Assembly (NCBI GenBank): GCA_025923995.1
Contig: JAICEW010000001.1
Span: 4,513 to 68,512, forward strand
Reading direction: 5' to 3'
Length of the DNA: 64,000 bases
From: Vicinamibacteria bacterium
GTDB lineage: Bacteria; Acidobacteriota; Vicinamibacteria; Fen-336
The position numbers and the translations under genes were made by a program. This document shows positions 1 to 60,502 of this stretch, one piece after another. Below the pieces are notes generated by a model. The model searched no databases, was not told the origin of the DNA, and worked only from the letters and a program-made list of their open reading frames with translations. Position 1 is the stretch's first letter. The number at the start of each line of letters is the position of its first letter.

Positions 1-457
1 GACGCCCCTCGTTGTAGGCCGTGATCGCGGTGACGTGGGTCTCGCTGGCGACGGCCGCCTCGGCCAGCAGCTCGTAGTCGCCCGGCTCGGACGAGGGATT
101 GTCCGTCGACACCTTGAGGCGGTAGTCGCCTTCCTTCTGCGTGATCCAGACGAGCATCTCGCTGCCGCCGACCTGGACCCAGTCCTTCACCTCGATGAGC
201 GCGGTGCCGGCGGGATCGAGCAGCTCGAGCGTGAGGTCGATCCCGATCTGTGCGCCGGCCACCTTCAGGGCCTGCCCCGCCGCCAGCTCCAGCCGGTACT
301 CGTGGACCTCGTTCGCGGCGAGCCGGTGGCGGACCGGCACGGACGGAGCGAGCACGCCCTGGTCGACGGTGGAGCGCGGCGGCGGGCTCGGCGCGACGCT
401 CGGGCCCTGGGGCGCCAGGAGCCCGACCAGCGGGACGCACAGACCCAGTGCCCGCAT
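1..457 (-). CDS. 5' part (N-terminal 152 aa) of a secreted protein with a PPC-like beta-sandwich domain; the gene continues past the window start
   Basis: Reverse-complement of 1-457 is an uninterrupted reading frame from ATG (457-455): MRALGLCVPLVGLLAPQGPSVAPSPPPRS... (signal-peptide-like). It is followed by HEYRLELAAGQALKV...LLDPAGTALIEV...GDYRLKV...PGDYELL, which is alignable to the N-terminal domain of the CHAT protein at 8910-12026. GC3-rich codon usage. Not in the ORF track because it is truncated by the window edge. Confidence 0.5.
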   Translation of the reverse strand, partial: MRALGLCVPLVGLLAPQGPSVAPSPPPRSTVDQGVLAPSVPVRHRLAANEVHEYRLELAAGQALKVAGAQIGIDLTLELLDPAGTALIEVKDWVQVGGSEMLVWITQKEGDYRLKVSTDNPSSEPGDYELLAEAAVASETHVTAITAYNEGR

Positions 458-508
458 GACCGGCAAGGATGGAACACCCAATCCCCCGCGGGCGCAAGGG
501 CGCATGCG

Positions 509-2208: not shown

Positions 2209-4131
2209 TCAGCGGCAGCTGTGGGTGCTGCACTTGGTCACCTTGAGCGTGCCCAGCGACGTCCCGTAGCTGATCACCGGCAGGCCGTCCGCGCCGAGCA
2301 CGACCGCCGAGTCGAAGCCCACGATGCCGCTTCCCGGCGCGAGGCTGTCCAGGCTCGTGAGGACGTTCCCCGCCGAGCAGGCCGCGTTGCCACACTTGGC
2401 GACGCGCAGCCCTTCGATGAACGAGCTGTAGAACGTCACGAGCGGGAGACCGTCCGCGCCGATCACGACCTGTCCCGTGGAGCCCAGGTCCGTGGCCAGC
2501 ACGGTGACGGTCGAGGTGCCCGTGCACGTGGCGTTCGCGCACTTCGCGGCCTTGAGGCTCAGGTCGGTGGCGAACTGCCCGAGGTAGCTCACGACGGGGA
2601 CGCCGTCGGCGCCGATCGCGATCGAGCTGTAGGCGCCGGCGAGCACACCCGCGCTCACCGGATCGTCGACCACCGTCAGCACGTTCCCCGCGCTGCACGC
2701 GGGCGTGCCGCAGTGCGCCACCTTGAGGACGCCCGCCGTCCGGTCGTGGTAGCTCACCACGGGCAGGCCGTCGGCCCCGACCGCGATGGCCGTGCCGTAG
2801 TCCACCGCGCCGATGGGATCATCCACGACCGTGATGGTGTTGGCGTTGCTGCAGGCGGCGTTCCCGCACTTCACCACCTTCAGCGTGCCCGCCGTCGTGT
2901 CGTTGTAGCTGACGACGGGCAGGCCGTCGGCGCCGATCGCGAGCGAGCTGCCCCGGCCCACCACGTTGACGGCGGGATCGTCCACGAAGGTGCGGGTGCT
3001 GACGCTGCAGAACGCGTTGGCGCACTTGGCGACCTTGAGCGCGCCCGCGCTCGCGTCGTGGTAGCTGATGACGGGGAGCCCGTCGGCGGGGACCGCGATC
3101 GACGTGTCGATGCCCACGACGGCCGCCGGGTCGTCCACCGTGACGGCGATGTTGCCCGCGCTGCAGGCCGGGTTGCCGCAGCGGAGGAACTTGAGCGCGC
3201 CGGCCGTCGCGTCGTGGTAGCTGACGACGGGCAGGCCGTCGGCGCCGATCGCGATCGAGGTGTCCTCGCCGACCTGGTTGACCGGATCGTCGGCGGTCGT
3301 GACCGCGGGCGGCACGAAGACGGCCTCGCAGACCACGGACCCGTCCGCGTTGATCCCGCGCAGGTACTGCCCGGCCGTGCACGCGCCGCTGACGCGCGCC
3401 TGCACCTGCGCGGTGTTGATCTGCGCGAGGCCGACGGCGCCGCCCGCGATCTTCGGCGACGTCACCGCCTGGGGCGCGATCAGGACCGTCGTGATTCCGG
3501 CGGCCGCGACCGCCAGCGTTCCCGTGCCCGTCACCGGTCCGCCGGTCAGCCCGGCGCCGGTGGCCACGGAGGTGACGGTGCCCCCGCTGTTGGCATCCGG
3601 TGCGCACGCCCACGCGGCGCCGTTCCACTTCGCGACCTGGCTGGGCGCGCAGGAGAGCGCGCCCAGCGCATCGTCGTCCGTGTCGTCGGCGAAGCCGGCC
3701 GGCTTGCCCGAGACGCCCGACCACGGCGCGGCTGCGCTCCACAGCGAGGCGGGCCCTGGCGTGAGCTCCTGCCGCGGCGCCAGGCTCGTGTAGCCGCCGG
3801 CGGACGCGCCCGGCCGGACGCCCACGTCCAGGAACCGCTGGCTGCCCGCGAACGCCGCCCCGAAGTCGAGCCTGACCGTGAACAGCCCGTTCGCGACCAC
3901 CACGTCGTCGCGCGCGACCGTCGGTCCGGACTGCGAGCCGCCGGCCACCGCGTCGAAGAGCCGGAACTGGAAGTCGAACGTGCCCTCGGCCGGCAGGCGG
4001 GCGTCCGTCAGCCGCCCCTGGTAGGTGAAGGCGGTGCCTTGCGGAGTCTGGGCCTGGACGGCGCCGGCGCCGGTGAGCACCGCGAGCGCGAACGCCGTCC
4101 GCGTGCGGCGGACTCGCGAGGGCATCGTCAT
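2209..4131 (-). CDS. secreted tail-fibre-like repeat protein, paralog A (shared N-terminal domain plus 8 x ~48-aa Cys-pair repeats)
   Basis: Start ATG at 4131 (MTMPSRVRRTRTAFALAVLTGAGAVQAQ signal peptide) overlapping the upstream stop as ATGA. The N-terminal ~230 aa are homologous to the N-terminus of the 4128-6233 product (FTYQGRL...FDFQF...GGSQ.GP...DDVVVA.GLFTV.LDFGA.FAGS...SGKPAGFADDTDDDALG...AKWNG..WACA). Then eight repeats of the form ...IAIGADGLPVVSY.D.TAG.LKV.KCGN.ACS...VVDDP. Confidence 0.7.
   Translation of the reverse strand: MTMPSRVRRTRTAFALAVLTGAGAVQAQTPQGTAFTYQGRLTDARLPAEGTFDFQFRLFDAVAGGSQSGPTVARDDVVVANGLFTVRLDFGAAFAGSQRFLDVGVRPGASAGGYTSLAPRQELTPGPASLWSAAAPWSGVSGKPAGFADDTDDDALGALSCAPSQVAKWNGAAWACAPDANSGGTVTSVATGAGLTGGPVTGTGTLAVAAAGITTVLIAPQAVTSPKIAGGAVGLAQINTAQVQARVSGACTAGQYLRGINADGSVVCEAVFVPPAVTTADDPVNQVGEDTSIAIGADGLPVVSYHDATAGALKFLRCGNPACSAGNIAVTVDDPAAVVGIDTSIAVPADGLPVISYHDASAGALKVAKCANAFCSVSTRTFVDDPAVNVVGRGSSLAIGADGLPVVSYNDTTAGTLKVVKCGNAACSNANTITVVDDPIGAVDYGTAIAVGADGLPVVSYHDRTAGVLKVAHCGTPACSAGNVLTVVDDPVSAGVLAGAYSSIAIGADGVPVVSYLGQFATDLSLKAAKCANATCTGTSTVTVLATDLGSTGQVVIGADGLPLVTFYSSFIEGLRVAKCGNAACSAGNVLTSLDSLAPGSGIVGFDSAVVLGADGLPVISYGTSLGTLKVTKCSTHSCR
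2212..3370 (-). repeat. in-frame tandem coding repeats (8 x ~144 nt) within the paralog A gene
   Basis: Periodic protein repeat GADGLPV(V/I)SY...LKV.KC(G/A)N..C seen eight times in the translation of 2209-4131; boundaries approximate. Confidence 0.5.
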
Positions 4132-6233
4132 GGCCGCGTGGCGGTGTGGCGCCGGTCGAGACCGCGCTCGGGCGGGGCGCCCCATGCGTCGGGGTGCAGG
4201 TAGGTCCCGCGCTCGTCGTCCGGCTTGTCTTCCTCGACCGGGATGCGGTGCTTCTCGGCGTACGCGTCCTGGCGTATCCCGGTCACCTGCCACGAGACCT
4301 CGATGCGCGGCAGGTCGGTCTGGACGACGAAGGTCCCGCCCGCCATCTTCCGCGAGACGCGTGCGCGCGCCCAGGCGCCGCCGCCGAGCACCGTGAGCTG
4401 GTAGCGGAAGTCGCGGTTCAAGGCCTCGAACCAGTCCGGCATCGTCACCGTCGCGTATCCCTGGTCGTCGGTGGTGACCACGCCGTCGTAGACGTTCTTC
4501 ATCTCCGGCGACTCGACGAACGAGTGGTACAGGTACCGGTTCTCGGGATCGAGCGGGTGGTCGATCTTGAACGAGCCCGCGCTCTTCGAGAGCGTCCCGT
4601 TCACGTGCAGGCGACCCGAGAAATAGCCGGCGTAGCCGGACGAGGAGCCCGAGAGCCCGTAGACGCCGACGTTGGCGCCGGTGGTTCCGGACGCCTGGCC
4701 GTAGACGCCGTACACCGTGCCCGTGCCGGTGGCCTCCCCGTGGACGCCGAAGCCGCGGACCACCTCGCCGTGCACGCCGGTCGCGACCCCGCCCGCCAGC
4801 GCCTGGCCCCGCACGCCGATGCCGACGCTGGACGTGCTGACGCCGTGCACGCCGACGATCGCGCCCGACGGCCAGTTCGCCTCGCCGTACACGCCGGTCG
4901 CTCCCACGGACTGGGCCCAGCCGTAGACGCCGAAGATGTCGCCGCTGCCTCCGAACGCGCGGCCCTGGACGCCGCGTCCGGCGCTGGACCAGCTCTCGCC
5001 CCACACGCCGGTCGTATTGCCCGAGGAGGCGAGCGCGTAGCCCACGACGCCGCGGCCTCCGGTCGACTCGGAGCGCCCCACCGCGCCGATCGTCGGCCCT
5101 CCGACGGTCGACGTCGCCCAGCCGTACACGCCCACGCCCTGGGTGGATTGCGACTGGCCCTCGACGCCGCGCGCGTCGCCGGAGCTCGCGAGCGCCACGC
5201 CCGACACGCCCCGCCCGAACGTCGACATGCTCCAGCCCTTCGCGCCGTACGTGAGCCCCGTGCTGGCCGTGTGCCAGCCGAACAGCGCGGAGCCGTAGCT
5301 GCTGCCGCTCTGTCCGCGCACGCCGAACTCGCCGCCCTCGGCGTAGACGCCGATGCCCTGGCTCGAGTCGCTCAGGCCGTAGACCCCGATGGTCGCGTTC
5401 GTGGTCGCGAGCGCGTGACCGTAGACGCCGACGCCGCTGGTCGAGCTGGTCTCGCCGACCACGCCGCGGCTGAAGCCACCGCCGGCTCCGGCGCGCGCCA
5501 GGAGGCCGGTGCCCGCGTTCGCCGTGCTCTCGACCGTGAGGCCGGTCGCGCTGCCCGCGTTCCAGGTCTGGCCGTGATGGTTGTGGTCGCTGCGCGCGAC
5601 CGTGGTCGACGCGCCGCCGCCGCCGAACGCGACGCTCAGCGTTCCCGTCGAGGTGATCGGCCCGCCCGCGAGGCCCGCCCCCGCCGCGACCGAGGTGACG
5701 GTGCCCGGGTTCACGCTGTCCACCGCGCACGCCCAGCCGTTGCCGTTCCACTTCGCGACCTCGCCGGCCGCGCAGGTGAGGCCGCCCAGCGCGTCGTCGT
5801 CCGTGTCGTCCGCGAAGCCGGCCGGCTTGCCCGAGACGCCGGTCCAGGGCGCGGCCGCGCTGAAGAGCGCGGTCGGGGTCGAGGTCAGCTCCTGGCGGGG
5901 CACGATCGGGGTGTAGGTGCCGGCGCTCGCGCCGGGCCGCACCGAGACGTCGAGCCAGCGCCGGCTCCCGGCGAAGGACGCGCCGAAGTCGAGCGCGACG
6001 GTGAAGAGCCCACCGGCCACCACCACGTCGTCGCGCAGCACGATGGGGCCGACCTGCGAGCCTCCCACCGCGGCGTCGTAGAGGATGAACTGGAAGTCGA
6101 ACGCGCCGTCGGCCGGCGCCCCACCGTCGGCCAGCCGGCCCTGGTAGGTGAAGCTCGAGCCCTGGGGAGTCTGGGCGGCGGCCGCCCCCCCCAGCAGGGC
6201 GGAGACGGCGGCCCCGACGATCGCGTAGCGCAT
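4128..6233 (-). CDS. secreted tail-fibre-like protein, paralog B (shared N-terminal domain, Gly-rich ~11-aa periodic repeats, conserved C-terminal IDHPLDPEN-type domain)
   Basis: Start ATG at 6233 (MRYAIVGAAVSALLGGAAAAQTPQG signal peptide) with AAGGAG upstream. The stop TGA (4130-4128) overlaps the next gene's ATG (4131-4129) as ATGA. The central region is a periodic G.GV(Y/W/H)G.(A/S)xxS repeat. The C-terminus reads SAGSFKIDHPLDPENRYLYHSFVESPEMKNVYDGVV... Confidence 0.7.
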   Translation of the reverse strand: MRYAIVGAAVSALLGGAAAAQTPQGSSFTYQGRLADGGAPADGAFDFQFILYDAAVGGSQVGPIVLRDDVVVAGGLFTVALDFGASFAGSRRWLDVSVRPGASAGTYTPIVPRQELTSTPTALFSAAAPWTGVSGKPAGFADDTDDDALGGLTCAAGEVAKWNGNGWACAVDSVNPGTVTSVAAGAGLAGGPITSTGTLSVAFGGGGASTTVARSDHNHHGQTWNAGSATGLTVESTANAGTGLLARAGAGGGFSRGVVGETSSTSGVGVYGHALATTNATIGVYGLSDSSQGIGVYAEGGEFGVRGQSGSSYGSALFGWHTASTGLTYGAKGWSMSTFGRGVSGVALASSGDARGVEGQSQSTQGVGVYGWATSTVGGPTIGAVGRSESTGGRGVVGYALASSGNTTGVWGESWSSAGRGVQGRAFGGSGDIFGVYGWAQSVGATGVYGEANWPSGAIVGVHGVSTSSVGIGVRGQALAGGVATGVHGEVVRGFGVHGEATGTGTVYGVYGQASGTTGANVGVYGLSGSSSGYAGYFSGRLHVNGTLSKSAGSFKIDHPLDPENRYLYHSFVESPEMKNVYDGVVTTDDQGYATVTMPDWFEALNRDFRYQLTVLGGGAWARARVSRKMAGGTFVVQTDLPRIEVSWQVTGIRQDAYAEKHRIPVEEDKPDDERGTYLHPDAWGAPPERGLDRRHTATRP
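4670..5620 (-). repeat. degenerate ~33-36 nt tandem coding repeats (Gly-rich beta-helix-like) within the paralog B gene
   Basis: DNA periodicity of gtagacgccg / gtgcacgccg / gtacacgccg units; the protein shows GVYG / GVHG / GVWG periodicity. Boundaries approximate. Confidence 0.45.
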
Positions 6234-6354: not shown

Positions 6355-7008
6355 TCACATCCAGGGGATGAACGGGTCCTCGTACGGCGGCTCCGGCAGC
6401 CCGACACACTCGCAGGTGAACGGGCACACGTAGCGCCAGCACTGCCCCCCTGAGTCCCACCACCAGTGACAGCTGCAGCTGAAGCCGGCCACGCCGCCCT
6501 GTGGCGCCAGGGGGTTGTTGCACCAGAGCTCACAGTAGTGCTCGATGCCCTCGCAGCTCTGGCTCGATCCCTGGCACCGCTGCCCATAGCTCACGGTGGC
6601 GCCGGTGGCCGGCGTCAGCTTGAACCGGTGGTGGGGGTCGACCGGCCCGACCGCCTTGCTGTCGAGGATCACCCGGGCGGTCTGCGTCTTGCCCGGATCG
6701 ATGTCGTACCCCTGTGCGACCTTCACGCGACGCACCAGCGTGCCGTCGGGCTTCGAGATGTCGAGCGACCAGCCGCCGGCCGTCACGAGCAGGTTGCTCG
6801 TGGTGTTGTGGACGCCGATCTGGAACCCGATCGAGTACTTGCCGCCCGCCTCGGGAATGAGGCGGGCGTCCCCGACCGTCAGCTTGAACGGCGCCTCGGG
6901 CGACGAGACGGCCTGGATCGTGATGGGGATCGGCTCCGCGGCCATCAGGATGGCGGCCACGGCAAGGGTCAGCGCGGCGGCGGCGGCAACGGCCGTTCGC
7001 GGGCGCAT
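6355..7008 (-). CDS. secreted Cys/Trp-rich protein (beta-sandwich N-terminal part plus a C-terminal ~70-aa domain with 12 Cys)
   Basis: Start ATG 7008-7006 (MRPRTAVAAAAALTLAVAAILMAAEP signal peptide) sharing one nt with the TGA of the metzincin gene (TGATG). The C-terminus reads RCQGSSQSCEGIEHYCELWCNNP...FSCSCHWWWDSGGQCWRYVCPFTCEC. Confidence 0.65.
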   Translation of the reverse strand: MRPRTAVAAAAALTLAVAAILMAAEPIPITIQAVSSPEAPFKLTVGDARLIPEAGGKYSIGFQIGVHNTTSNLLVTAGGWSLDISKPDGTLVRRVKVAQGYDIDPGKTQTARVILDSKAVGPVDPHHRFKLTPATGATVSYGQRCQGSSQSCEGIEHYCELWCNNPLAPQGGVAGFSCSCHWWWDSGGQCWRYVCPFTCECVGLPEPPYEDPFIPWM

Positions 7009-7961
7009 CAGAAGCACCCGTTCGTGTAGGTGGCCGTCCGGTTGCCGCGGCGGTAGCAGCTGCAGCCCGACGCGTTGCACGCGCGCACCCGCACGTACGC
7101 GGAGGCCACGACGTTCAGCGTGGTCATGGTGTCGGGCCCGGAATACACGAGCGTCTGTGTTCCGAAGCCGGAGCTGCTCGACCGGTACACCTCGTACCGC
7201 GTGGCGCCGGCCGAGGGAGCCCAATCGAGGTCGTTCAGCCCGTAACACATCGCCGGAGTCACGGTGAAGCTGGCGGGCGCGGGCGGAGCGCCCGTCGCGC
7301 CGCAGTACCGCTCCTGGGAGCACTTCAGGGCGTTGCGGTCGTCCGTCTCCAGGCTCCGCTGCTGCGTCCCGCCCCAGTACGTCGCGTCCATGGTGGGCGT
7401 CTGGTTGGTTGCGGCGGGCACCGAGAGCTCGGTGTGGTGGATGCCCAGCGCGTGGCCCAGCTCGTGGGCCGCGACCGCCTGCGTGTCGTTGTCCATTCCG
7501 TTCGTGAACCAGTTGACGTTGTCCTCGAACACGATGTCGGACTCGATGATGACCTGCCCCGGCTGCTGCAGGACGAGCTGGGTGAGAGCGATGCAGCCGT
7601 TGCACGGGATCGCCTGGGCCCAGGAGAGGGTGTTCTGCTGGTCCACGGTGAACCCCGCGTTGGTGGTGCCCGCGTACGTGAGCACGTGGTCGGCGCCGGG
7701 GACGTTCGTCCAGGACGTCATGGCCGCCGTGAGTGCTGCCGCCTTGCCGTTCCCCTGGCGGGCCAGGTTGTGGAACCAGTTGGTGAACGGCGTGTTCCAG
7801 TGGGTGAAGCCGCCCGGGTCGTTGCAGGGCACGCGAAGGCCGCTGGTCTGCGCGCCGGCATTCGTCTGCTGGATCAGGCGCGAGGCGTCCGATGGAACCG
7901 CGATGCCCGACAGCAGGATCGCGGCCGTGGCGAGTCTCGTGAGACGACGTGGGCGGGTCAT
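7008..7961 (-). CDS. secreted zinc metalloprotease of the metzincin class (HExxHxxGxxH) with a C-terminal Cys-containing FN3-like tail
   Basis: AAHELGHALGIHH motif plus a downstream Met-turn candidate (PTMDATY). Signal peptide MTRPRRLTRLATAAILLSG. Start ATG 7961-7959 with GAGGAGG upstream, overlapping the upstream gene's stop as ATGA. Confidence 0.8.
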   Translation of the reverse strand: MTRPRRLTRLATAAILLSGIAVPSDASRLIQQTNAGAQTSGLRVPCNDPGGFTHWNTPFTNWFHNLARQGNGKAAALTAAMTSWTNVPGADHVLTYAGTTNAGFTVDQQNTLSWAQAIPCNGCIALTQLVLQQPGQVIIESDIVFEDNVNWFTNGMDNDTQAVAAHELGHALGIHHTELSVPAATNQTPTMDATYWGGTQQRSLETDDRNALKCSQERYCGATGAPPAPASFTVTPAMCYGLNDLDWAPSAGATRYEVYRSSSSGFGTQTLVYSGPDTMTTLNVVASAYVRVRACNASGCSCYRRGNRTATYTNGCF

Positions 7962-8554
7962 CGCTGCACCTCCTCGGCGGGCCCCTGCCTCACGGCATCG
8001 AGGATCCGCTGCGTGAGCTCGTGAAGCGGGAGGCCGTCGGGGCCACCCGCGGGATCCCTGCGGCCGAACCGATCGGCCACGAGCGGATGGGACGCCGCCT
8101 GGCTCACGGCGTGCGTGACGCCGTCCGTGCCCTCGGCCAGGTCGAACACGCCCTGCGACAGGTAGCTGGGGGTGAGTGCGTCGGCCGCTCCCGGGAGCGT
8201 CCCGCGGCCGAGGAACAGCACGTAGCTGCGGCCTGTTTGAAGCGAGGCTCCGGCGACGATCATCGCCGTGCGGTCCCCGACCGTTCCTCCCAGCAGCGTG
8301 ACGGTGATCTCCGCCCCGGCGCTTCCCTTCAGCACCTCGGTCGGGGCGACCCGCACGTCGGTGAAGATCAGGCTCCGCGCCGCGTTCCAGTACGAGCGCG
8401 CTCCCATGACCTCGCCGACCACGACCGTCTCGTGGGCTGCGGTCAGGTCCTCCAGGCTGGCGCGAACCATCGTGGTCGCGTCCGCGGATGCCACACAGCC
8501 GAGCGCGAGCGCGATCGCGCCGGTGGCATGCCTCCATGTCTTGTTCGTGTGCAT
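7958..8554 (-). CDS. secreted hypothetical protein (198 aa); first gene of the coupled triad
   Basis: Start chosen at ATG 8554 (MHTNKTWRHATGAIALALGCVASADA signal peptide) preceded by GAGGAGGTGGACCAC. The ORF-track start at 8644 adds 30 non-hydrophobic residues. Confidence 0.6.
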   Translation of the reverse strand: MHTNKTWRHATGAIALALGCVASADATTMVRASLEDLTAAHETVVVGEVMGARSYWNAARSLIFTDVRVAPTEVLKGSAGAEITVTLLGGTVGDRTAMIVAGASLQTGRSYVLFLGRGTLPGAADALTPSYLSQGVFDLAEGTDGVTHAVSQAASHPLVADRFGRRDPAGGPDGLPLHELTQRILDAVRQGPAEEVQR

Positions 8555-8909: not shown

Positions 8910-11900
8910 ATGCGCGGTCGAGCCCATTCGCCGGCTTGGACCCCTTTCCGGACGGTCCTGCTGTGCCTGGCGGCCTCGCCGTTCGTGGTCGCGCTCGAGG
9001 AGACGGTCGTCCCGAACGGCGTTCCCCTGCCCTTCGAGCTGACGGGCGGCGAGCCCAACCGCCACCCGTTGGCGCTCGAAGCGGGCCAGCTCCTGGACGT
9101 GGAGCTGCGCGAGAGATCGTCGCGGCTCGGCCTCGCCCTCCTCGATCCCTCGGGCGCCGTCGCCGCGCGACGTGAGGTGGCCGGAGAGAGCATCACGACG
9201 GTGCGCCTGCTCGCCGTGGCTCCGGTCGCGGGGCTCTACACGCTCGAGGTCCGGGCCCAGTCACCGGGCGCGCCGGGAGGCTACACGCTTGGCATCCAGC
9301 CGCCCCGTGCGGCCGGCACCGCCGAGCGGACGCGCGTCTCCGGCGACGAGGTGCATGCCGAAGCCCTCCGGGAGGCGGCCAAGGGCACGCCGGACGGCCG
9401 ACGCGGGGCGCTCGAGCGGCTGGCCGTCGCCGAGAAGGCGTTCGGCGAGACCGGCGACCGTCTCGGCCTCGCCCTCGTGCTCCAGGATCGCGGGACCGTG
9501 CAGCTCGCGCTCGGAGACCTCGCCGCCGGCCCGTCGTCGTATGAACGCGCGCTCGATCTGTTCCGCCGGATGGACCACGCCGAGGGCGAGGCGGCGGCGC
9601 TGTGCGGGCTGGGGCGCGCGAAGCTGGCCCAAGGTGAGCTGGAGCTGGCGGGACAGTTGTTCGATCGGGCGCTCGAACGTGCCGGCGCGGCCAATCCACG
9701 CACCGTCGCCTACTACACCAGCAACGCCGGGATCGTGCTGGCGCGCACTGGACGCTACGAAGGCGCGATCGCGCGTTTCTCCCGCGCGGCCGAGCTGGTG
9801 GCCCCGACGGGGGACGGGCGCGGCCAGGGCCGCGCGCTCACCAACCTGGCGAGCGCCCACAAGGAGCTGGGCGACTACGAGCGCGCGGCCGCCATCTACG
9901 ATCGCGCGCTCGCGGTGTGGGAGAAGGCCGGACAGCGCGACGGCATGCTGATGACGCTCGTCAACCTCGGCAACATGGCCCTGCTGCAGGACGACGTGGA
10001 GCGCGCACAGGCGCTGCTGGAGAAGGCCCTGCCGCTGGCGGAGGGCACGGGGACCGACGAGGAAGGCCGTCTCCTCATGAACCTGGCGGCGATCCATCGG
10101 CGGCGCGGGGACCTGCCGCGGGCCGTCCCTCTGGCCGAGCGGTCGCTCGAAATCAGGCGGCGCGCGGCCCAGCCGCGTGGCATCGCCAGTTCGCTGCAGA
10201 TCCTCGCGGACTGCGTACGCGACGCCGGCGACCCGGAGCTGGCCCTGCGCCACCTCACGGAGGCGCTGGCGCTGCAGCAGTCCATCCAGGACGCGTACCT
10301 GGGCTCGGAGACGCTCAGCCGCATGGCCGAGCTGGAGCGCTCCGGTGGCCGCCTGAAGGAGGCCGTGCAGCACGCCGAGCAGGCGGTGAGCCTTGTCGAG
10401 TCGCTGCGGGCTTCCGTGACGAACCCGGACCTGCGCGCTTCGTTCGTCGCGGTCGAGCGGGTCAAGTACGACCTGCTGGTCGACGTGCTGATGCGCCTGC
10501 ACGAGCAGGACCCGGCGGCGGGGCACGACGCGGCCGCCCTGGCCGTCAGCGAGCGCGCCAGCGCGCGCGTCCTTCTCGACTCGCTGGTGGAGGCGCGCGC
10601 CGACATCCGCGCCGGCGTGGACGCCGCGCTGCTGGCCCGCGAGCGGGAGCTCCAGAAGCGGATGACCGAGGGCTCCACGCGCCTGTCGTCGCTGCTCGCC
10701 CGGCAGGCCCCGGCCGGAGACGTGGAGCCCGCTCGCGCCGCACTCGAAGCCGCGTCCGAGGAGTACCGCCAGCTCCAGGCCACGATCAGGGCGCAGAGCC
10801 CCCGCTATGCCGCGCTCACCCAGCCCCAGCCCCCCACGCTGGAGCAGCTGCGGCAGGACGCGCTGGACGAAGGGACGCTCCTGCTGGAGTACTTCCTGGG
10901 CGACGACCGCAGTGTCCTCTGGGTCGTGGGCCGGAAGGAGCTCGTGAGCGTCTCGCTGCCCGCCCGCCGGAGGATCGAGGAGCCCGCCCGGCGCATCCAC
11001 GAGCTCCTGAGCGAGCGGCAGCGCTCGCGTGGTGCCGCCGCGCGCGCGGCCGACGAGCGCCTCCGCGCGGAGTCGGCGGCGCTGTCGGAGGTGCTGCTCG
11101 GGGGCATCGCGCCGCGGCTGCGGGCCGACTGGCGCGGCAAGCGCCTCCTGATCGTGGCGCCGGGCGCGCTGGCGTACGTTCCCTTCGCCGCGCTCCCGCT
11201 GCCCGGCGACGCCGGCGGCCGCCCCCTGTTGGACGGCCACGAGGTGGTCTACGCGCCGTCGGCCTCCGTGCTGATCGCCTTGCGCCGCGAGCCGCCCCCG
11301 GTCACGGAACGGTCGACGGTCGCCGTGCTGGCCGACCCGGTCTTCGAGGCGGACGACCCCCGCGTCGGCCGCTCGGGGGGGCACGCCTCGCGGGCGCCGC
11401 AACCGGTCGGGCTGGGCCGCGCGATGCGGAGCCTGGGGCGCGACCACTTCACGCGCCTGCCCTTCTCCCGCGCGGAGGCGGCGGCGCTCGCGTCGCTGGT
11501 GCCCGAGCGTGACCTGCTGCGCGCGACCGACTTCGCGGCGTCGCGCGCGCTCGTCGACGAGGGCGCGCTGGCGGGGCGACGCATCGTGCACTTCGCGACC
11601 CACGGCATCCTCGACACCGCGCACCCCGACCTGTCCGGCCTCGTGCTGTCGCTCGTGGACGAGAAGGGCCGGCCGCGCGACGGCTTCCTGCGCATGCACG
11701 AGATCTACAACCTGCGCCTGCCCGCGGACCTGGTGGTGCTGAGCGCGTGCCAGACCGCGCTCGGCCGCGAGGTGCGCGGCGAGGGGCTGGTCGGCCTCAC
11801 GCGCGGCTTCCTCTACGCCGGCGCGCGCCGCGTGATGGCCAGCCTCTGGCAGGTCGACGACGAGTCGAGCGCGGAGCTGATGAGGCGCTTCTATCGCGCC

Positions 11901-12026
11901 CACCTGCGCGACGGGCAGCCGCCGGCGGCCGCGCTGCGCGCCGCGCAGGCGGAGATGTCCCGCGACCGCCGGTTCGCCGCGCCGTTCTACTGGGCGGCGT
12001 TCACCCTCACCGGCGACTGGCGCTGA
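8910..12026 (+). CDS. multidomain CHAT (caspase-like) protease: N-terminal PPC-like domain, TPR repeats, coiled linker, C-terminal CHAT domain
   Basis: TPR-like segments (LGLALVLQDRG..., ALTNLASAHKELGDYERAAAIYDRAL..., LMNLAAIHRRRGDL...). The CHAT domain carries the His/Cys dyad (IVHFATHGILD ... LVVLSACQTALG). The N-terminus (FRTVLLCLAASPFVVALEE) may be a signal peptide. Start codon uncertain; the only in-frame ATG is at 8910. Confidence 0.85.
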   Translation: MRGRAHSPAWTPFRTVLLCLAASPFVVALEETVVPNGVPLPFELTGGEPNRHPLALEAGQLLDVELRERSSRLGLALLDPSGAVAARREVAGESITTVRLLAVAPVAGLYTLEVRAQSPGAPGGYTLGIQPPRAAGTAERTRVSGDEVHAEALREAAKGTPDGRRGALERLAVAEKAFGETGDRLGLALVLQDRGTVQLALGDLAAGPSSYERALDLFRRMDHAEGEAAALCGLGRAKLAQGELELAGQLFDRALERAGAANPRTVAYYTSNAGIVLARTGRYEGAIARFSRAAELVAPTGDGRGQGRALTNLASAHKELGDYERAAAIYDRALAVWEKAGQRDGMLMTLVNLGNMALLQDDVERAQALLEKALPLAEGTGTDEEGRLLMNLAAIHRRRGDLPRAVPLAERSLEIRRRAAQPRGIASSLQILADCVRDAGDPELALRHLTEALALQQSIQDAYLGSETLSRMAELERSGGRLKEAVQHAEQAVSLVESLRASVTNPDLRASFVAVERVKYDLLVDVLMRLHEQDPAAGHDAAALAVSERASARVLLDSLVEARADIRAGVDAALLARERELQKRMTEGSTRLSSLLARQAPAGDVEPARAALEAASEEYRQLQATIRAQSPRYAALTQPQPPTLEQLRQDALDEGTLLLEYFLGDDRSVLWVVGRKELVSVSLPARRRIEEPARRIHELLSERQRSRGAAARAADERLRAESAALSEVLLGGIAPRLRADWRGKRLLIVAPGALAYVPFAALPLPGDAGGRPLLDGHEVVYAPSASVLIALRREPPPVTERSTVAVLADPVFEADDPRVGRSGGHASRAPQPVGLGRAMRSLGRDHFTRLPFSRAEAAALASLVPERDLLRATDFAASRALVDEGALAGRRIVHFATHGILDTAHPDLSGLVLSLVDEKGRPRDGFLRMHEIYNLRLPADLVVLSACQTALGREVRGEGLVGLTRGFLYAGARRVMASLWQVDDESSAELMRRFYRAHLRDGQPPAAALRAAQAEMSRDRRFAAPFYWAAFTLTGDWR

Positions 12027-18334: not shown

Positions 18335-20389
18335 TCACGCCGTAGGGCCGGAGCCCGGCGCGGCCACCACCTCGAACGGCTCGCGGGCCCGCAGGGTCTC
18401 GCTCTTGCCGTCCGCCTGCACCGAGATCAGCAGCTCGTAGCTGCCGGCGGGCAGTCCCTTGAGCGGGATCGACCACTGCCGCGAGGGGGGCACCGCCGCG
18501 ATCGGGCTGTCCGGGATCTGCAGCAGGGTCTGCCCCGAGGCGTCGCGCAGCACGACGCCCGCCTGCACGGCCACGCCCGGCGCGCCCATCACCTGCACCA
18601 CGCAGTGGAGCGTGGAGTCGGCGGCGAACCGCCTCTCCGCGCGGGCCAGCGGCCGCTGCGCCTGCAGCACGTCGGTGAGGATGGGTGTCGTGATCCGGAA
18701 GGTGTCGAGCGGCTGCACCTCGAGCGTGTGGCGCACGCTGCCCAGGCGGTGGCCGCCGCTACGCTCGCGCACCACCAGGCGCGCCTGGTACGCGCCCACG
18801 TCCGCCTCGAAGTGCTGCTCGATCCGGACGCGGTTCCCGGCCGCGGCGACCGGGGCCGCCCGCACCACCTGCTGAGCGCGGCTGCTGCCCTGGCCCGTGA
18901 GCAGGAACACCGCGTCGAGTGTGTCGGGCGTGCTCATGCCGGTGGTGTCCACCTCCGCCACCAGGCGCACCACCGAGCCACCGCGAGGACCGCGCCCGAG
19001 CACGTACGAGGCGAGGTGGAAGGGCAGCCCCGTGACGTCGAAAGGCGAGACCAGCGCGGCCTCCAGCTCGGGGCGCGCGGAGGCGCGGCGGACGGACCGG
19101 GCCTCCGGCGCCGCCACCGCGAAGTAGCCGGGCCGCACGTCGAGCTTGAGGTCGGCGCCGCGTGCCGACACCCGGAGCTCGTGGTACCTGCCGTCGGCGC
19201 GCCCGCCCGGCGCGTAGCCCAGCAGGTAGTAGGTGCGCAGCTCGTTCCCGATGCGCGAGAACGCGTCGGGCAGGGCCTCCAGGCTGCGGACGATGCGGCC
19301 TCCGGTCGCGTGGGCGAGCGCGTCCGAGCCCTCGGCGTCCCGCTTCGCGTGCATCTGCGCGTCCAGGATGTCGCGCGTGTCGATGTCCCGCACGTAGTCG
19401 CCGGTGTCGTGGCCCAGCAAGCCCTGGTTGCGGGGGTCGATCACGTGCACCGCCGCCCGGGCGCGGCGCGCGGCCTCGACCAGCTCGCGATGCTCCAGGA
19501 TCGCCGGGTCGTGGATGAACCCCTCCGACACGAGGACCACCGCCTTGCGGCCCGGCCGCGCCGCCAGTCCCTGCAAGAGCTGCACGAGGCTCGCGAGCGT
19601 CGCCGCCTGGCGGCTGCGCGCCGCACGCCACTTCTGCTCGGCCTCCACCTTGATGGCGCCCTTGCCGATCGCCGGCGCGTCCCGCATGCCGTCGCTCTCG
19701 ACGCCACGCGGTCGCTTGGCCCCACCCCCGCCGTACACCTCGGGCAGGATGGGCGTCGGATCGGGCACGTAGCCCTGGTCCACGTAACGGCGGTAGACCT
19801 GCGTCAGCGTGGTGTCGTTGTTGCGGGCCGCGATCAGGAACGCCTCGTAGTCGGTCATGTACCCGGGCCGTTCGAACCGCGCGCCGCGGAAGCGATCGAG
19901 CGCGCGCTGCAGGCCCTCCGCGTCCTCGGGCAGACGTCCCAGCCACGAGCCGCCGCCGGCGGTGGACAGGAGCAGCACGTCCGCCGGTCCCAGCGAGCCC
20001 TCGCGCCAGACGGCGTCGAGCCGGCGCCGCACCTGCTCCGTCGTGGCCGGAGCCATGTGCAGCTCGTCGAACGCCACCACCAGCGTGGCCCGCGGCGTGG
20101 ACACGCCGGTGTTGGTGGACAGGACGCTCCTGCGCCTCTCCGCCTCCGAACCGGGCTGCGCCTCCAGGTCGACCGCCTCGAACGTCTCGACCTCCTGCGG
20201 CTTGCCGTCCTCGTACACCACGAAGTCGTCCTTCGTGAGCCCGCGCACGAGCTGCCCCTTCTCGTCCCTCACCACGACGTCCACGATGACCAGGTCGGCC
20301 TGGCTCGTGAACACCGGCGGCTCGGGGGGCTGCTGGGGAAGAAGGGAGGACGGCACGACGACGAGCGCGATCGCGAGGGGGGACCTCAT
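18335..20389 (-). CDS. VWFA-related acidobacterial-domain protein (TIGR03436-like), paralog 1
   Basis: Hallmark N-terminus FTSQADLVIVDVVVRDEKGQLVRGLTKDDFVVYEDGKPQEV. Signal peptide. ATG at 20389 with GGAGGTG RBS. ~55% alignable to the 21550-23607 product over the full length. Confidence 0.75.
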   Translation of the reverse strand: MRSPLAIALVVVPSSLLPQQPPEPPVFTSQADLVIVDVVVRDEKGQLVRGLTKDDFVVYEDGKPQEVETFEAVDLEAQPGSEAERRRSVLSTNTGVSTPRATLVVAFDELHMAPATTEQVRRRLDAVWREGSLGPADVLLLSTAGGGSWLGRLPEDAEGLQRALDRFRGARFERPGYMTDYEAFLIAARNNDTTLTQVYRRYVDQGYVPDPTPILPEVYGGGGAKRPRGVESDGMRDAPAIGKGAIKVEAEQKWRAARSRQAATLASLVQLLQGLAARPGRKAVVLVSEGFIHDPAILEHRELVEAARRARAAVHVIDPRNQGLLGHDTGDYVRDIDTRDILDAQMHAKRDAEGSDALAHATGGRIVRSLEALPDAFSRIGNELRTYYLLGYAPGGRADGRYHELRVSARGADLKLDVRPGYFAVAAPEARSVRRASARPELEAALVSPFDVTGLPFHLASYVLGRGPRGGSVVRLVAEVDTTGMSTPDTLDAVFLLTGQGSSRAQQVVRAAPVAAAGNRVRIEQHFEADVGAYQARLVVRERSGGHRLGSVRHTLEVQPLDTFRITTPILTDVLQAQRPLARAERRFAADSTLHCVVQVMGAPGVAVQAGVVLRDASGQTLLQIPDSPIAAVPPSRQWSIPLKGLPAGSYELLISVQADGKSETLRAREPFEVVAAPGSGPTA

Positions 20390-20532
20390 GCCTCACCTCC
20401 GGCGTCTGACGGCAGGCGCGATTCCCGATGGTAGTCCCGAAGGGAAGCCCCGCGCATCCCTTCGTCGAGGACTGGCCGGCCGGGCCGGCGGGCTGGTACC
20501 ATTCGGGGTTTGTAGGGGGCTCGAGGGGTCAC

Positions 20533-21540
20533 ATGTCGGTCGCGCGCGCGGTCTTCCTGGCTCTGTCGCTTTCGTCCGCCGCCGGAGCCTCGGCGCAGGA
20601 GTCGCTCAAGATCCAGCACCAGCCGCCGCAGTGCCTGGTTCCGGACCGCTACTCCGAGCTGCGCGCGAAGATCGACCCCATCAGCAACGTGCTGCGGGCC
20701 CGCATCCTCTTCCGTACGGACCCGCTGGCCGAGCCGCACGCGGTGCTGATGCGCCAGGACGGCCAGGAGTTCGTGGGCGTGCTGCCGCGCCCCCTGCCGA
20801 CCCTCACCCAGGTGCAGTACTGGGTGGAGGCCGCCGACCCGGCGCTGGTCGAGACGGTCTCGGACGAGGTCACGGTTCCCGTCCAGGCGAGCTGCGCCCA
20901 GGCGGCGAAGAACAAGAAGAGCGCCCGGACGGACGTGACGGCGCCGCTCGGAGCGCCGCTGGTCCCCGCCGGGTTCGGATCCGACGAGCAGGTGGCGGAT
21001 GCGACGTTCATGAAGGGTGGCTCGGGGCGTGCGGGCGTCTTCAACATCGGCGCCAAGACGTCGCTGATCGCCGCCCTCGGCGTCGGAGCGGGCGCGGTGG
21101 CGGTGGCCGCCGCCAACAACCCGGGCGGCAACCCGCCCGAGCGGCCCGTCGTGATGGAGCCGGTGGGCGTGACGTTCATCGAGTCGACGCCCGCGCCCGG
21201 GGGCACGGTCAGCCTGGGACAGGGGAGCTTCCGCGTCATGGTCCGCGTGGTGATCGGCAGCGGCATCGGCGGCGCGCCTTCGATCGAGTTCCGCCAGAAC
21301 CCCGGCGGGCCCGTCTGCATGACGAACGCGTTCCAGCTCCCGAACGAGTTCCTGGAGCCGCACGTCGGCCGGAACGTGCAGTTCAACCAGTTCCGGGCCA
21401 CCGGCGCCTGCGGCGACACGTTCGAGGTCGGCGTGGTGCGCGTGGCCCTGCGCGCGTCGTTCGGCGCCGGGGCGGAGATCTTCACGACGGGGACGGCCGA
21501 GGTCCCCGACCTGGCGCTGCGCTACCAGGTCACGCCCTAG
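20533..21540 (+). CDS. secreted hypothetical protein
   Basis: Start ATG 20533 (MSVARAVFLALSLSSAAGASAQ signal peptide) preceded by GAGGGG. GC3-rich. Sits between the two VWA paralogs on the opposite strand. Confidence 0.5.
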   Translation: MSVARAVFLALSLSSAAGASAQESLKIQHQPPQCLVPDRYSELRAKIDPISNVLRARILFRTDPLAEPHAVLMRQDGQEFVGVLPRPLPTLTQVQYWVEAADPALVETVSDEVTVPVQASCAQAAKNKKSARTDVTAPLGAPLVPAGFGSDEQVADATFMKGGSGRAGVFNIGAKTSLIAALGVGAGAVAVAAANNPGGNPPERPVVMEPVGVTFIESTPAPGGTVSLGQGSFRVMVRVVIGSGIGGAPSIEFRQNPGGPVCMTNAFQLPNEFLEPHVGRNVQFNQFRATGACGDTFEVGVVRVALRASFGAGAEIFTTGTAEVPDLALRYQVTP

Positions 21541-21549
21541 CGCACGCCG

Positions 21550-23607
21550 TCAGGGGGTCGTCGAGGCCGTCTGCGGGGCCACGACCTCGAACGCCTCGCG
21601 CGACTGCACGCCCTTGCCGCTCGGGTCCTTCACCGAGATCAGCACCTCGTAGGTCCCGGTCTCCAGCTGCTCGAGCGGGATCGACCAGTGCCGTGATGGC
21701 GGCGTCGAGGAGATGGGGGAGTCGGCCACCTGGAACACGGTGCGCCCGTCCGCCGCCTTCACCTCCAGGCCGGCCTGCACGGGCAGGCTGGCCGCGCCGA
21801 CCACCTCGACCAGGCAGTGCAGCGTCGACCCCTTCGCGAACTTGCGCTCGGCGCGCGCCAGCGGCGACTTGTCGGCCAGCAGGACGTCGGTGAGGATCGG
21901 CGTGGTCAGGCGGAACGCGTTCATCGGCTGCACCGTGACCGACTGCAGCACGCTGCCCACGCGCTTGGGCCCGCCACGCTCGCGCACGACGATCCGGGCC
22001 TGGTAGGCGCCCGCGGGCGCCTCGAACTGGCGCTCGAGCCGGATGCGGGCACCGCCCCCGGCGGTGACCGGCGCGGTCAGCGTCGCGTGCAGGGCCTGGC
22101 TGTCGTCCTGCTTCGCGAGCTGGAACAGCGCGTCCAGGCTCTCGGGTGCGGTGACCGCAGTCGCGTCCACTTCCGCCACCAGGCGGATCACCGACCCGCC
22201 CTCGGGCCCCTGGCCCAGGACGAACGCGGCCAGGTAGACGGGCAGGCCGGCCGCGTCGAAGGGTGACATCAGCGCCGCCTGCAAGGCGGTGCTCGGAGCC
22301 TCGCGCGCGGCCCGCTGCGCCGCCGGGGCCAGCGCAAAGTAGCCGGGCCGCGCCTCCAGCTTGAGGCCGGGGCGCTTCGCCTCCACCTGGAGCTTGTGGT
22401 ACTGGCCGTCATTGCGCGCGTTGGGCGGCGCGTAGCCGAGCAGGTAGTACGTCCGCAGCTCGCCGCCGATGCGTCCGAGCGTGTGGGCCAGGTTCTGGGA
22501 GGTGCGCACGATCCGGCCGCCGGTGGCGAGGGCGATGGCGTCGGATCCTTCGGCCTCGCGCGGCTGCCGCATCGAGAGCTGGATGGAGTCGCGCGAGTCC
22601 ACGACGTTGTCCATTTCGGCGTCCGGGCCCAGCGCCGCGGGCGTGCGCGGGTCGATGACGTGCACGGCCGCCCGCGCGGCGCGTGCGGCCTCGACCAGTG
22701 CGCGGTGCTCGAGCACCGCCGGGTCGTGCACGAACCCCTCGGTCACCAGCACCACCGCCTTGCGGCCCGGCGTCCCCGCCAGCCCGTTGAGCAGGCGCTG
22801 GAGGCTGGCCAGCGTGACCGCCTGGCGGCGCCGGGCCTCGGACCACTTCTGCTCGGCATCGGCCTGCACGAGGCTGCGGCCAGCGGGCGGCATCGACTTC
22901 TGCTGCTCGGACTGCTGGCCGTAGATCTGGCGCTCGCCGGTGTCGATCTGGGTCGGGTCGTGGATGATCCCCATGTCGAGGTACCGGCGGTAGACCTCGA
23001 CCAGCACCCGGTCGTCGCGGCGGGCCGTGATGAGGAAGGCTTCGTAGTCCGTGACCTTGCCCGGGTTCTCGGGCTGGCGTCCGCCCCGGAAGCGGAGCAG
23101 CGCCGATTGCATGCCCTCCGCCTCCTCCGGCAGCCGGCCGAGCCAGTTGCCTCCGCCGGCGGTGGAGACGAGGAGCACGTTCGCCGCGCCCAGCGACTTC
23201 CAGACCGGCTCCAGGCGGCGGCGCACCTCCTCGGTCTTGATCGACGACAGGTGCTGCTCGTCGAACACGACGATCATGGTGGCGCGCTCGGGCCCGGCGC
23301 CGGTGTTGCTGGCCAGCGCCGCGGTGACGGGAGCGGTCCCGCCGGGGGGCGTTGCCACCGCCGCCCCGGGTCGGTCGATGGCCTCGAAGGTCGCGATCTC
23401 CTGCGCGCGGCCGTCCTCCTTGACGACGAAGTCCTCGCGCGTGAGGCCGCGTACGGGCAGCCCCTTGTCGTCGGTGACCACGACGTCGACGATCACCAGC
23501 TCGGCCTCGCTCGCGAAGACCGGCGGGGCGGGCGTCGGCGGGGGCGGCTGGGCCAGCAGCGGTGGCGCGGCCAGGACCGCCAGGGCCAGGAAGCAAGCGC
23601 GCGTCAT
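21550..23607 (-). CDS. VWFA-related acidobacterial-domain protein (TIGR03436-like), paralog 2
   Basis: FASEAELVIVDVVVTDDKGLPVRGLTREDFVVKEDGRAQEI. Start ATG 23607 (MTRACFLALAVLAAPPLLAQ) with GGAGG RBS. Confidence 0.75.
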   Translation of the reverse strand: MTRACFLALAVLAAPPLLAQPPPPTPAPPVFASEAELVIVDVVVTDDKGLPVRGLTREDFVVKEDGRAQEIATFEAIDRPGAAVATPPGGTAPVTAALASNTGAGPERATMIVVFDEQHLSSIKTEEVRRRLEPVWKSLGAANVLLVSTAGGGNWLGRLPEEAEGMQSALLRFRGGRQPENPGKVTDYEAFLITARRDDRVLVEVYRRYLDMGIIHDPTQIDTGERQIYGQQSEQQKSMPPAGRSLVQADAEQKWSEARRRQAVTLASLQRLLNGLAGTPGRKAVVLVTEGFVHDPAVLEHRALVEAARAARAAVHVIDPRTPAALGPDAEMDNVVDSRDSIQLSMRQPREAEGSDAIALATGGRIVRTSQNLAHTLGRIGGELRTYYLLGYAPPNARNDGQYHKLQVEAKRPGLKLEARPGYFALAPAAQRAAREAPSTALQAALMSPFDAAGLPVYLAAFVLGQGPEGGSVIRLVAEVDATAVTAPESLDALFQLAKQDDSQALHATLTAPVTAGGGARIRLERQFEAPAGAYQARIVVRERGGPKRVGSVLQSVTVQPMNAFRLTTPILTDVLLADKSPLARAERKFAKGSTLHCLVEVVGAASLPVQAGLEVKAADGRTVFQVADSPISSTPPSRHWSIPLEQLETGTYEVLISVKDPSGKGVQSREAFEVVAPQTASTTP

Positions 23608-23687
23608 GGGACCTCCGGGAATGCCGCCAGGAAGTCCGATGTTAGCCCCGTGCACGGTCGCCGTGCACGGGGCTCACGGCGAAGCCG

Positions 23688-26224: not shown

Positions 26225-26342
26225 GAAACAATGCCTTCCAGTCTGCGCCGCGACACATCGGTCCAGCGGTGCGTAAATCGGCGTGGATTATAGAGAAAAC
26301 CCCCGGCAGTGGCAAGTGCCGGTTCCTGGAGCCGTGAGCCTG

Positions 26343-31985: not shown

Positions 31986-33656
<1,671 letters not shown>

Positions 33657-33689
33657 TCGTTCCCTTTCCTTCTTCCTCTATGAATCCCG

Positions 33690-60475: not shown

Positions 60476-60502
60476 GCCGAGAGCCTACCGCGAGCGGCGG
60501 CG

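Follow-up and report, generated by a model that had tools for sequence, protein, structure and literature searches.

Near the start of a 64,000-nucleotide stretch of DNA from a Vicinamibacteria bacterium (assembly GCA_025923995.1, contig JAICEW010000001.1) lie two neighbouring genes whose products are built like phage tail fibres, and the question that they raise is whether such proteins belong to a phage or to the cell. The whole stretch, which has a GC content of 73%, is called the window. The gene products are called A (positions 2209–4131 of the window) and B (positions 4128–6233); both genes are on the minus strand, as are all features of A, B and the gene that follows them for which positions are given below. 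The original prediction, made from the sequence of the window, had described A and B as paralogues with a shared N-terminal anchor and variable C-terminal ‘warheads’, following the logic of phage tail fibres and polymorphic adhesins. The anchor and the variable C-termini are borne out by the analysis described here; the phage is not. We think it rather probable, though well short of certain, that A and B are modular secreted lectin-like fibres which dock through their shared N-terminal domain (N-domain) onto an adaptor carrying a small module, here called GQ, encoded next to them.

A and B were accepted as real genes because their GC content by codon position is typical of genes, the value at third positions being 0.96 in both. 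Long plus-strand open reading frames (ORFs) overlying them were discarded as high-GC artefacts on the same measure. Gene B encodes a secreted tail-fibre-like protein of 701 residues and has the ribosome-binding site AAGGAG 7 nt 5′ of its ATG, while gene A encodes a secreted fibre-like protein of 640 residues with a propeller head. A protein identical to B is present in the NCBI collection (P0121), and the named relatives at ∼50% identity are Vicinamibacteria. Sec signal peptides of typical form were read from the sequence at the start of both proteins, residues 1–20 of B (6174–6233; MRYAIVGAAVSALLGGAAAA/Q, a hydrophobic core and then AAA/Q, the slash marking the end of the peptide) and residues 1–27 of A (4051–4131; ...AFALAVLTGAGAVQA/Q). 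The mature N-termini are alike, QTPQG(T/S)xFTYQGRL. The TGA of B overlaps the ATG of A within CGG CCA TGA CG (4128–4131; CCATGACG), as originally described. The overlap is not kept in relatives and, since the order and number of the fibre genes vary among the closest of them, the ATGA coupling by which the pair had been characterised is regarded as local to this genome.

Alignment of the two proteins by BLASTP matched residues 28–212 of A with residues 21–205 of B, ungapped over 185 residues at 73% identity (E 5e-79), and gave no further alignment between the rest of A and B. The identity is above the ∼25% that the original prediction had set as its limit for paralogy and the remainder of each protein is unrelated, as had been stated, although the shared part is ∼185 residues past the signal peptides rather than ∼230. 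The motifs that had been quoted (FTYQGRL, FDFQF, GKPAGFADDTDDDALG, AKWNG..WACA and FKIDHPLDPENRYLYHSFVESPEMKNVYDGV) were all found. No further copies of the A or B modules were found within the window. Between orthologues in the nearest relative the N-domains are 83% identical, as against 67–73% between paralogues. The paralogy is real and, as orthologous N-domains are closer than paralogous ones, the duplication is old; gene conversion between the paralogues was rejected on the same comparison.

The shared region begins with the N-domain, residues 21–121 of B (5871–6173; six or seven strands, predicted local distance difference test score (pLDDT) 88–98) and residues 28–128 of A (3748–4050; pLDDT 80–96; 73% identity to that of B). 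It is predicted to be an immunoglobulin/fibronectin type III (Ig/FN3)-like β-sandwich and is without a sequence match in Pfam, NCBIfam or the PDB. Linker modules follow at residues 122–205 of B (5619–5870) and, by alignment with B, residues 129–212 of A (3496–3747). They comprise GKPAGFADDTDDD, a mini-domain with a Cys pair (C154 and C169 in B; C161 and C176 in A) and the sequence TVTSVxAGxGLxGGP. The proximal parts of A and B thus consist of the same modules, namely the Ig-like N-domain, a linker that is acidic, a mini-domain of the disulfide type and GxGLxGG, a tail-fibre-like motif.

In an exhaustive search with the 185-residue region, E ≤ 1e-3 was reached by 25,798 cluster representatives and E ≤ 1e-30 by 507; the search also indicated that residues 129–185 are a separable sub-module found in up to 29 repeats in giant proteins. 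In the 139 best representatives an N-domain, if there is one, begins at residue 12–53 without exception, and what follows it differs: the propeller of A was found in 14 and the C-terminal domain of B (C-domain) in 10. Peptidase_S74 (PF13884), which acts as intramolecular chaperone in the trimeric spikes and fibres of phages, was found in 20 of a 64-protein subset of the remaining representatives; neither A nor B matches it at E ≤ 1. The N-domain is therefore the mark of a very large family whose C-termini are interchangeable. This is the shared anchor with variable ends, and the polymorphic family of tail-fibre-like proteins, that had been anticipated. The family is very abundant in soil and sediment metagenomes, where it is without functional annotation.

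The gene after A, which the original prediction did not mention, was found to be a conserved neighbour. It starts 17 nt after the stop of A, with AGGAGG in front, and encodes a protein of 560 residues (509–2191) composed of a signal peptide, the GQ module and DUF11/CLIPPER repeats. The GQ module (1970–2149; YAISWSTVDGGG...GTAGQPDAG...HAGFW; jackhmmer E 1.7e-24) forms the first ∼55 residues after the signal peptide, has the consensus YxLxWxTxDGGGGxSxGGxYxLxGTxGQPDAxxLxGGxYxLxGGFW and gives no Pfam or PDB match. All four close relatives have a DUF11/CLIPPER gene directly after the last fibre gene. When all retrieved loci were searched with an iterative hidden Markov model, 21 were found to have a GQ gene on the same strand as the last N-domain gene and ≤∼350 bp downstream of it; in 3–4 further loci the GQ gene was immediately upstream of the N-domain genes, and in ∼4 it was absent. 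It therefore adjoins N-domain genes in 24–25 of ∼29 usable loci, compared with only 4 of ∼50 loci that have no N-domain. The paired loci, from Lysobacterales, Chloroflexota and Acidobacteriota, span three phyla, and a cluster has just one GQ gene whether it contains one, two or three fibre genes. A reciprocal test used 120 metagenome loci chosen solely by the peptide GTIGQPDAG, 119 of which carry the GQ module. Where the upstream sequence was 4 kb or longer, a same-strand N-domain gene was present in it in 20 of 24 loci; with a lower limit of 2.5 kb the figure was 28 of 39. The GQ module is the sole neighbour of N-domain fibre genes that is conserved across phyla.

GQ proteins are mostly small (70–110 residues) with a signal peptide, and the tails after the module vary. 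In Chloroflexota the tail is an ultrashort C-terminal YLPLVxR, which matches the NCBIfam YLP-box, a putative sorting motif for which no literature was found, at or near the cut-offs. In Lysobacterales it is a C-terminal FxNGFE, and in other GQ proteins, from metagenome loci L099–L218, either a ∼75-residue domain ending in FYRLxxP or a dockerin-like D-x-D-G-D-V-D. The lineage of the window has DUF11 repeats in this position. The tail thus looks like a lineage-specific anchoring module. Kinship among the N-domain, the C-domain of B and the GQ module was tried with hhalign and rejected, the three being unrelated to one another. A cultured organism, Aquimonas voraii DSM 16957 (L056, NZ_FNAG01000003.1), has an A-like gene with N-domain and propeller, directly followed by a small GQ gene whose product ends in DGFEAP, and could serve as an experimental model.

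Beyond the shared region, A consists of a middle module and a head. The middle module, residues 213–275 (3307–3495), contains the Cys pair C251/C268 and has Q244, R246, C251, G264 and C268 invariant in 103 aligned homologues. The head, residues 276–640 (2212–3306), is made of seven 52-residue repeats, each with a C-x4-C. The repeats are spaced by 52, 52, 52, 55, 51 and 55 residues, and the residue autocorrelation of A peaks at lag 52 with z = 16.5 against shuffled sequences. Periodicity far above shuffled controls was thus observed in A, as it was in B (lag 26, z = 7.6); however, the eight repeats of ∼48 residues originally counted in A are in fact seven with a period of 52 (51–55) residues. 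The regularly spaced Cys pair that had been pointed out is present in every repeat, always as C-x4-C and never as the C-x2-C that the original pattern allowed. All seven pairs are invariant in the same 103 homologues. In total A contains 18 Cys as nine local pairs, and B a single pair. The blades are 37–65% identical to one another, ∼50% being typical, and the residues conserved in the family (DGxP, SY, LKV, CxxxxC and DDP) recur in each of them.

Structure prediction agrees with the β-propeller proposed for these repeats, and A is confidently predicted to end in one with seven blades. The AlphaFold2 model has a pLDDT of ∼97 over residues 280–640 and four strands in each blade, with the C-x4-C in the hairpin that joins strands 3 and 4. 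As A ends directly after the last C-x4-C, the N-terminal strand 276–281 probably completes the last blade. A Foldseek search of the PDB placed Photorhabdus PLL/PHL lectins, which are seven-bladed propellers, in all of the 21 top positions (E 7e-14 to 2e-11, TM-score 0.72–0.80, 13–15% identity), with seven-bladed glycoside hydrolases, lyases and sialidases in the next ranks. Like these ‘bangle’ lectins (PDB 5C9O, 5MXE, 6RFZ and 8Q83), the head of A has seven mutually similar, four-stranded blades of ∼50 residues. Binding of fucose or O-methyl sugars between blades is a mark of this family. In PHL the sugars bound there are fucose and galactose, and the sole disulfide reported joins subunits (PMC5584973). 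In contrast to A, the PLL/PHL lectins are free-standing proteins of ∼40 kDa without a C-x4-C in each blade, whereas the propeller of A ends a fibre-like N-terminal part of 275 residues. The low identity to PLL/PHL goes with the lack of any match, by sequence or profile, to the PLL W-motif repeats: phmmer with A gave nothing in the PDB at E ≤ 1, and a single-repeat profile gave no PLL/PHL protein at E ≤ 10.

No Pfam or NCBIfam family matches the repeat above threshold and no solved structure was reached by sequence, so the impression that the Cys-pair repeat fits no named family is upheld. The likeness to YVTN repeats that had also been drawn is not, there being no YVTN, NHL or BNR Pfam match to A at E ≤ 1. 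DUF1936 (PF09151) was considered as an explanation of the repeat and rejected: the score of A, 23.3 bits, is below the cut-off of 25, and the match is confined to the surroundings of one Cys hairpin, with 13 of the 34 model positions covered. A marginal local match (E 1.1–1.2) of the repeat profile was to the C-terminal end of Ta0289 (PDB 1PVM and 2QH1), the protein on which DUF1936 was built; no literature on DUF1936 was found. Because A is exported and each Cys pair lies in a hairpin turn, the pairs would form one disulfide staple per blade in an oxidising compartment. Metal binding by them is unlikely, since each blade has two Cys, the pairs are on separate blades and His is not conserved.

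More than 1850 homologues of A were found, most of them covering 95–100% of it at 45–55% identity and all named hypothetical. The propeller occurs in Gammaproteobacteria, Acidobacteriota, Nitrospirota, Chloroflexota, Actinomycetes, several phyla of the Candidate Phyla Radiation (CPR) and archaea. It was found without the N-domain in 45 of 72 loci and is a mobile module. A tblastn search with A against 50,697 phage genomes gave no phage match.

The remainder of B is entirely different. Residues 179–239 have a weak match to PHROG 10588, a tail protein (E 7.6e-6). This stretch contains the motif ARSDHxHxGQxW with H217-x-H219 (5562–5594), in which His217 and His219 are retained by 71 and 70, respectively, of 75 aligned homologues (∼94%). 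In T4 gp37 and in pyocin tail fibres, sites of this H-x-H kind bind metal on the axis of the trimer (PMC11705849, PMC6363177). The conserved H-x-H is indirect support for a homotrimer of B, the predictions being of the monomer only. It precedes a Gly-rich region, residues 249–540 (4614–5489), of ∼22 units which alternate between 12 and 14 residues, so giving a 26-residue super-repeat (GV.G.S.S..G. and GV.G.A.A..G...) and the autocorrelation peak at lag 26 noted above; the family consensus is GVxGxSxSxxGxGVxGxAxAxxGxxx. These figures replace the ∼30 units of ∼11 residues first reported, and the β-helical fold then suggested for them is not established, the confidence of the model there being only ∼50.

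The C-domain of B, residues 541–701 (4131–4613), is modelled with eight or nine strands and a pLDDT of mostly 90–97 over residues ∼560–690. In a tblastn search of the same 50,697 phage genomes, residues 542–696 matched the extreme C-terminus of the tail fiber PSSM2_295 of Prochlorococcus phage P-SSM2 (33% identity, E 3e-8). Further matches were to virion proteins of cyanophage S-TIM and to the minor tail protein gp19 of Arthrobacter phage Mufasa8, the E values of the phage matches running from 3e-8 to 1e-3, and the invariant HP...H...E...P...Y.G residues are retained in the alignment. Judged by these alignments, the conserved domain that had been noticed at the end of B has homologues at the C-terminal ends of proteins annotated as phage tail fibres or minor tail proteins. 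B resembles phage tail fibres with a receptor-binding foot (PSSM2_295, the R-type pyocin fibre and AP22 gp53) in having H-x-H before its fibrous repeats, and its last ∼155 residues correspond to the last ∼150 of PSSM2_295 and also to Mufasa8 gp19. Unlike phage fibres, which assemble in the cytoplasm and lack an export signal, it has a signal peptide, a cellular chromosomal context and an N-terminal attachment domain not found in phages, and its C-domain is far more conserved than their typical receptor-binding tips.

Homologues of the whole of B numbered 889, in whose consensus the C-domain is strongly conserved, and those of the C-domain 4517, with 60–80% identity across phyla and no Pfam domains. 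It is present in 13 IMG/VR contigs, never together with the N-domain, and has no solved relative by PDB sequence search. Foldseek with B gave no PDB match better than E 7e-3, and sequence and profile searches of the PDB with B gave nothing meaningful. In Pfam, NCBIfam and PHROGs there is no family for either A or B save the sub-threshold DUF1936 match and the weak PHROG tail match.

The surroundings of the genes answer the question of phage or cell. Among the neighbours are genes for an M10 peptidase, a Cys-rich protein, the DUF11 protein, TPR-CHAT proteins, a Ser/Thr kinase, MgtE, a GGDEF-EAL protein, LigD and RpoD; the locus is syntenic with chromosomal regions of relatives, and no phage genes were found near A and B or in the scanned 14–34 kb stretch. 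The locus is ordinary chromosome and not prophage.

From these results a model can be suggested. A and B would be cellular proteins exported by the Sec system which share the build of phage tail fibres and serve as binding fibres outside the cell or on its surface. The propeller of A may be a multivalent lectin-like head that binds between blades, by analogy with PLL/PHL; as the blades are near-copies with the same positions conserved in every one, their pattern is that of a multivalent lectin rather than of one active site. B could be a trimeric fibre with a metal-bound H-x-H and a jellyroll ‘foot’ that binds a surface polysaccharide. The common N-domain would dock both fibres on the same GQ partner, in which case two binding specificities would sit on one common anchor, and the variable C-terminal tail of the partner (DUF11 here; YLP-box, GFE or dockerin-like elsewhere) would tie the assembly to the envelope or matrix.

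Several points weigh against this model. All structures of A and B are predicted, with binding, oligomeric state, disulfides and location inferred. The evidence for docking of the N-domain on the GQ module is gene adjacency, and fusions of the two were found in none of 351 N-domain proteins. The Gly-rich region of B was modelled at low confidence, the conservation of the C-domain across phyla fits a role in folding or structure better than a variable receptor tip, and the lower Foldseek ranks of the propeller (hydrolases and lyases), together with a homologue of A, P0033, whose score of 78 bits on BNR_4 is summed over weak stretches, leave room for an enzymatic head. Nor does the model explain the route across the outer membrane.

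The alternatives differ in how well they accommodate the same evidence. That A and B are true tail fibres of a phage, prophage or tailocin, assembling on a baseplate, is what the C-domain of B at the C-terminus of annotated phage tail fibres, the PHROG match and the Peptidase_S74 domain in many N-domain relatives would lead one to expect; yet both proteins have Sec signal peptides, their neighbours are chromosomal genes in synteny with relatives, no phage gene was found nearby, and the N-domain is absent from the 50,697 phage genomes as well as from the 13 viral contigs that carry the C-domain. An origin as true phage genes is thus effectively excluded. The main rivals lie elsewhere, in a propeller that is an enzyme and in a GQ protein that serves as chaperone or tip. 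The propeller might be a carbohydrate-active enzyme of the GH145, PL24/25/42 or BNR_4 type, making A a secreted stalked depolymerase. Depolymerases are common on tailspikes, and Foldseek matched the propeller at E 1e-10 to 1e-7 to BT3686, ulvan lyases, a rhamnose-glucuronate lyase and sialidases, besides which there is the BNR_4 score of P0033. Against the enzyme stand the 21 best matches, all lectins, the absence of a BNR_4 match to A itself at E ≤ 1, and the near-copy blades (∼50% identity) with their shared conserved residues, a pattern of multivalent lectins and not of a single active site. We regard the enzyme as unlikely.

The other main rival, doubtful in our opinion, would make the GQ protein an assembly chaperone or distal tip subunit, or the whole set a donor-strand-exchange pilus related to the Pam pilus of CPR bacteria. 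Its gene lies immediately downstream, as do phage tail fibre assembly (tfa) genes, and most GQ proteins are small. Like PamT (NF058579), the GQ protein is a small Sec-exported protein encoded with genes for surface filaments; PamT is predicted to be the tip pilin of CPR Pam pili, and a protein resembling tail fibres is a conserved neighbour of pam operons (bioRxiv 10.64898/2026.03.03.709456). Three GQ proteins from different phyla weakly match CPR_pilus_PamT (15–18 bits, E 1e-3 to 9e-3), but the cut-off is 240 and the matched stretch takes in the signal peptide. The GQ protein of the window has no such match, and in contrast to Pam pili no Pam pilins or chaperones, nor any usher genes, were seen near A and B. 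The resemblance to PamT is a lead only, and the lineage-specific tails, similar to sorting or anchoring elements, suit an anchor better than a chaperone. A non-adhesive structural role in the envelope, S-layer or a matrix scaffold, with the lectin-like folds incidental, would be in keeping with a family so abundant in soil and sediment yet without functional annotation, and with the DUF11 repeats of the partner, which are typical of surface-layer-like proteins. We consider it very unlikely, as the distal modules are of kinds used in ligand recognition and are swapped between paralogues at one locus, which is characteristic of binding specificity and not of a scaffold.

The preferred reading, secreted lectin-like fibres on a GQ adaptor, places A and B in a known kind of protein, the secreted fibre-like adhesins that reuse phage fibre modules. 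By their N-termini they belong to the same modular superfamily as the ‘tail fiber domain-containing proteins’ of NCBI, which carry Peptidase_S74; unlike those, A ends in a propeller and B in the unnamed domain shared with phages. A repetitive stalk with a distal binding domain is also found in fibrillar and trimeric autotransporter adhesins, and several homologues of B are labelled as the latter by the Joint Genome Institute (JGI). However, A and B are without the YadA anchor, head and stalk domains in Pfam and NCBIfam, and neither was found to carry a membrane anchor at its C-terminus, an LPXTG or any other known anchor.

What appears undescribed is the C-x4-C propeller repeat, the N-domain as the handle of a family and the pairing of N-domain with GQ; none of these is in Pfam, NCBIfam or the PDB, and nothing was found on them in the searchable literature. 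A wider proposition is possible, though at present we would sooner doubt it than rely on it. In this proposition the N-domain fibres and the GQ adaptor form a widespread, undescribed Sec-dependent system of surface display, present in at least Gammaproteobacteria, Chloroflexota and Acidobacteriota and perhaps related to the CPR Pam tip. The small adaptor, with its GQ module and a lineage-specific sorting or anchor tail at the C-terminus, would tie one to three interchangeable tail-fibre-like lectins, composed partly of modules that phage tail fibres also have, to the cell surface, with the Cys-stapled 52-residue propeller as a new lectin repeat family among its heads. Tail-fibre-like cellular proteins are very common in environmental bacteria and nearly all are annotated as hypothetical. 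One N-terminal module, accompanied by a small partner gene of its own, is common to thousands of them, and this provides a testable logic of assembly rather than a catalogue of orphan domains. Pfam, NCBIfam and the PDB lack three abundant modules, the N-domain, the C-x4-C repeat and the C-domain shared with phages, and to name these would improve the annotation of soil and sediment metagenomes. The C-domain ties cellular surface fibres to the receptor-binding proteins of phages and so bears on the movement of binding modules between phage and host. If the heads are indeed lectins, the family would be a large and so far unexploited store of multivalent glycan binders stabilised by disulfides.

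Some further features of the locus were recorded. Four close relatives retain the GGDEF-EAL, MgtE and kinase backbone while their fibre genes vary, the layouts being A, CHAT, B; A only; B only; and a short B-like gene with B. Comparison of the window with these loci (L001, L083, L084 and L085) shows a variable island after the GGDEF-EAL/MgtE/Ser-Thr kinase block in which the fibre genes change and the GQ-DUF11 gene stays. Caspase-like TPR-CHAT proteins are encoded on both sides of the locus, at 8910–12026 (plus strand), where the N-terminus appears signal-peptide-like, and at 2–508 (minus strand). The latter gene runs off the start of the window and has a PPC-like N-terminus, resembling in this the PPC-TPR-CHAT gene found after the DUF11 gene in relative L083. 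The CHAT association was dismissed as a reflection of shared synteny, since it is seen in close relatives only and was not found in distant loci.

Directly upstream of B, 6355–7008 (minus strand) encodes a predicted secreted protein of 217 residues with no family match and a dense cluster of Cys and Trp in its last ∼70 residues (CQGSSQSCEGIEHYCELWCNN...CSCHWWWDSGGQCWRYVCPFTCEC). Upstream of this Cys-rich gene is a chain with overlapping start and stop, consisting of 7008–7961 (minus strand), a secreted matrixin-like M10 metallopeptidase with HELGHALGIHH, and 7958–8554 (minus strand), an unknown protein of 198 residues; the chain is not kept beside the fibre genes in relatives. Farther away, five sizeable ORFs with gene-like codon bias have no Pfam match at E ≤ 1e-5: 18335–20392, 21550–23673 and 25328–26287 on the minus strand, and 20410–21540 and 26277–27329 on the plus strand. 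The composition of the window departs from the rest around rpoD (31986–33677), within 32001–34000, where the GC content is 0.66 and the AT skew −0.25, and a strong positive AT skew (+0.17 to +0.25) marks the last 4 kb (60001–64000).

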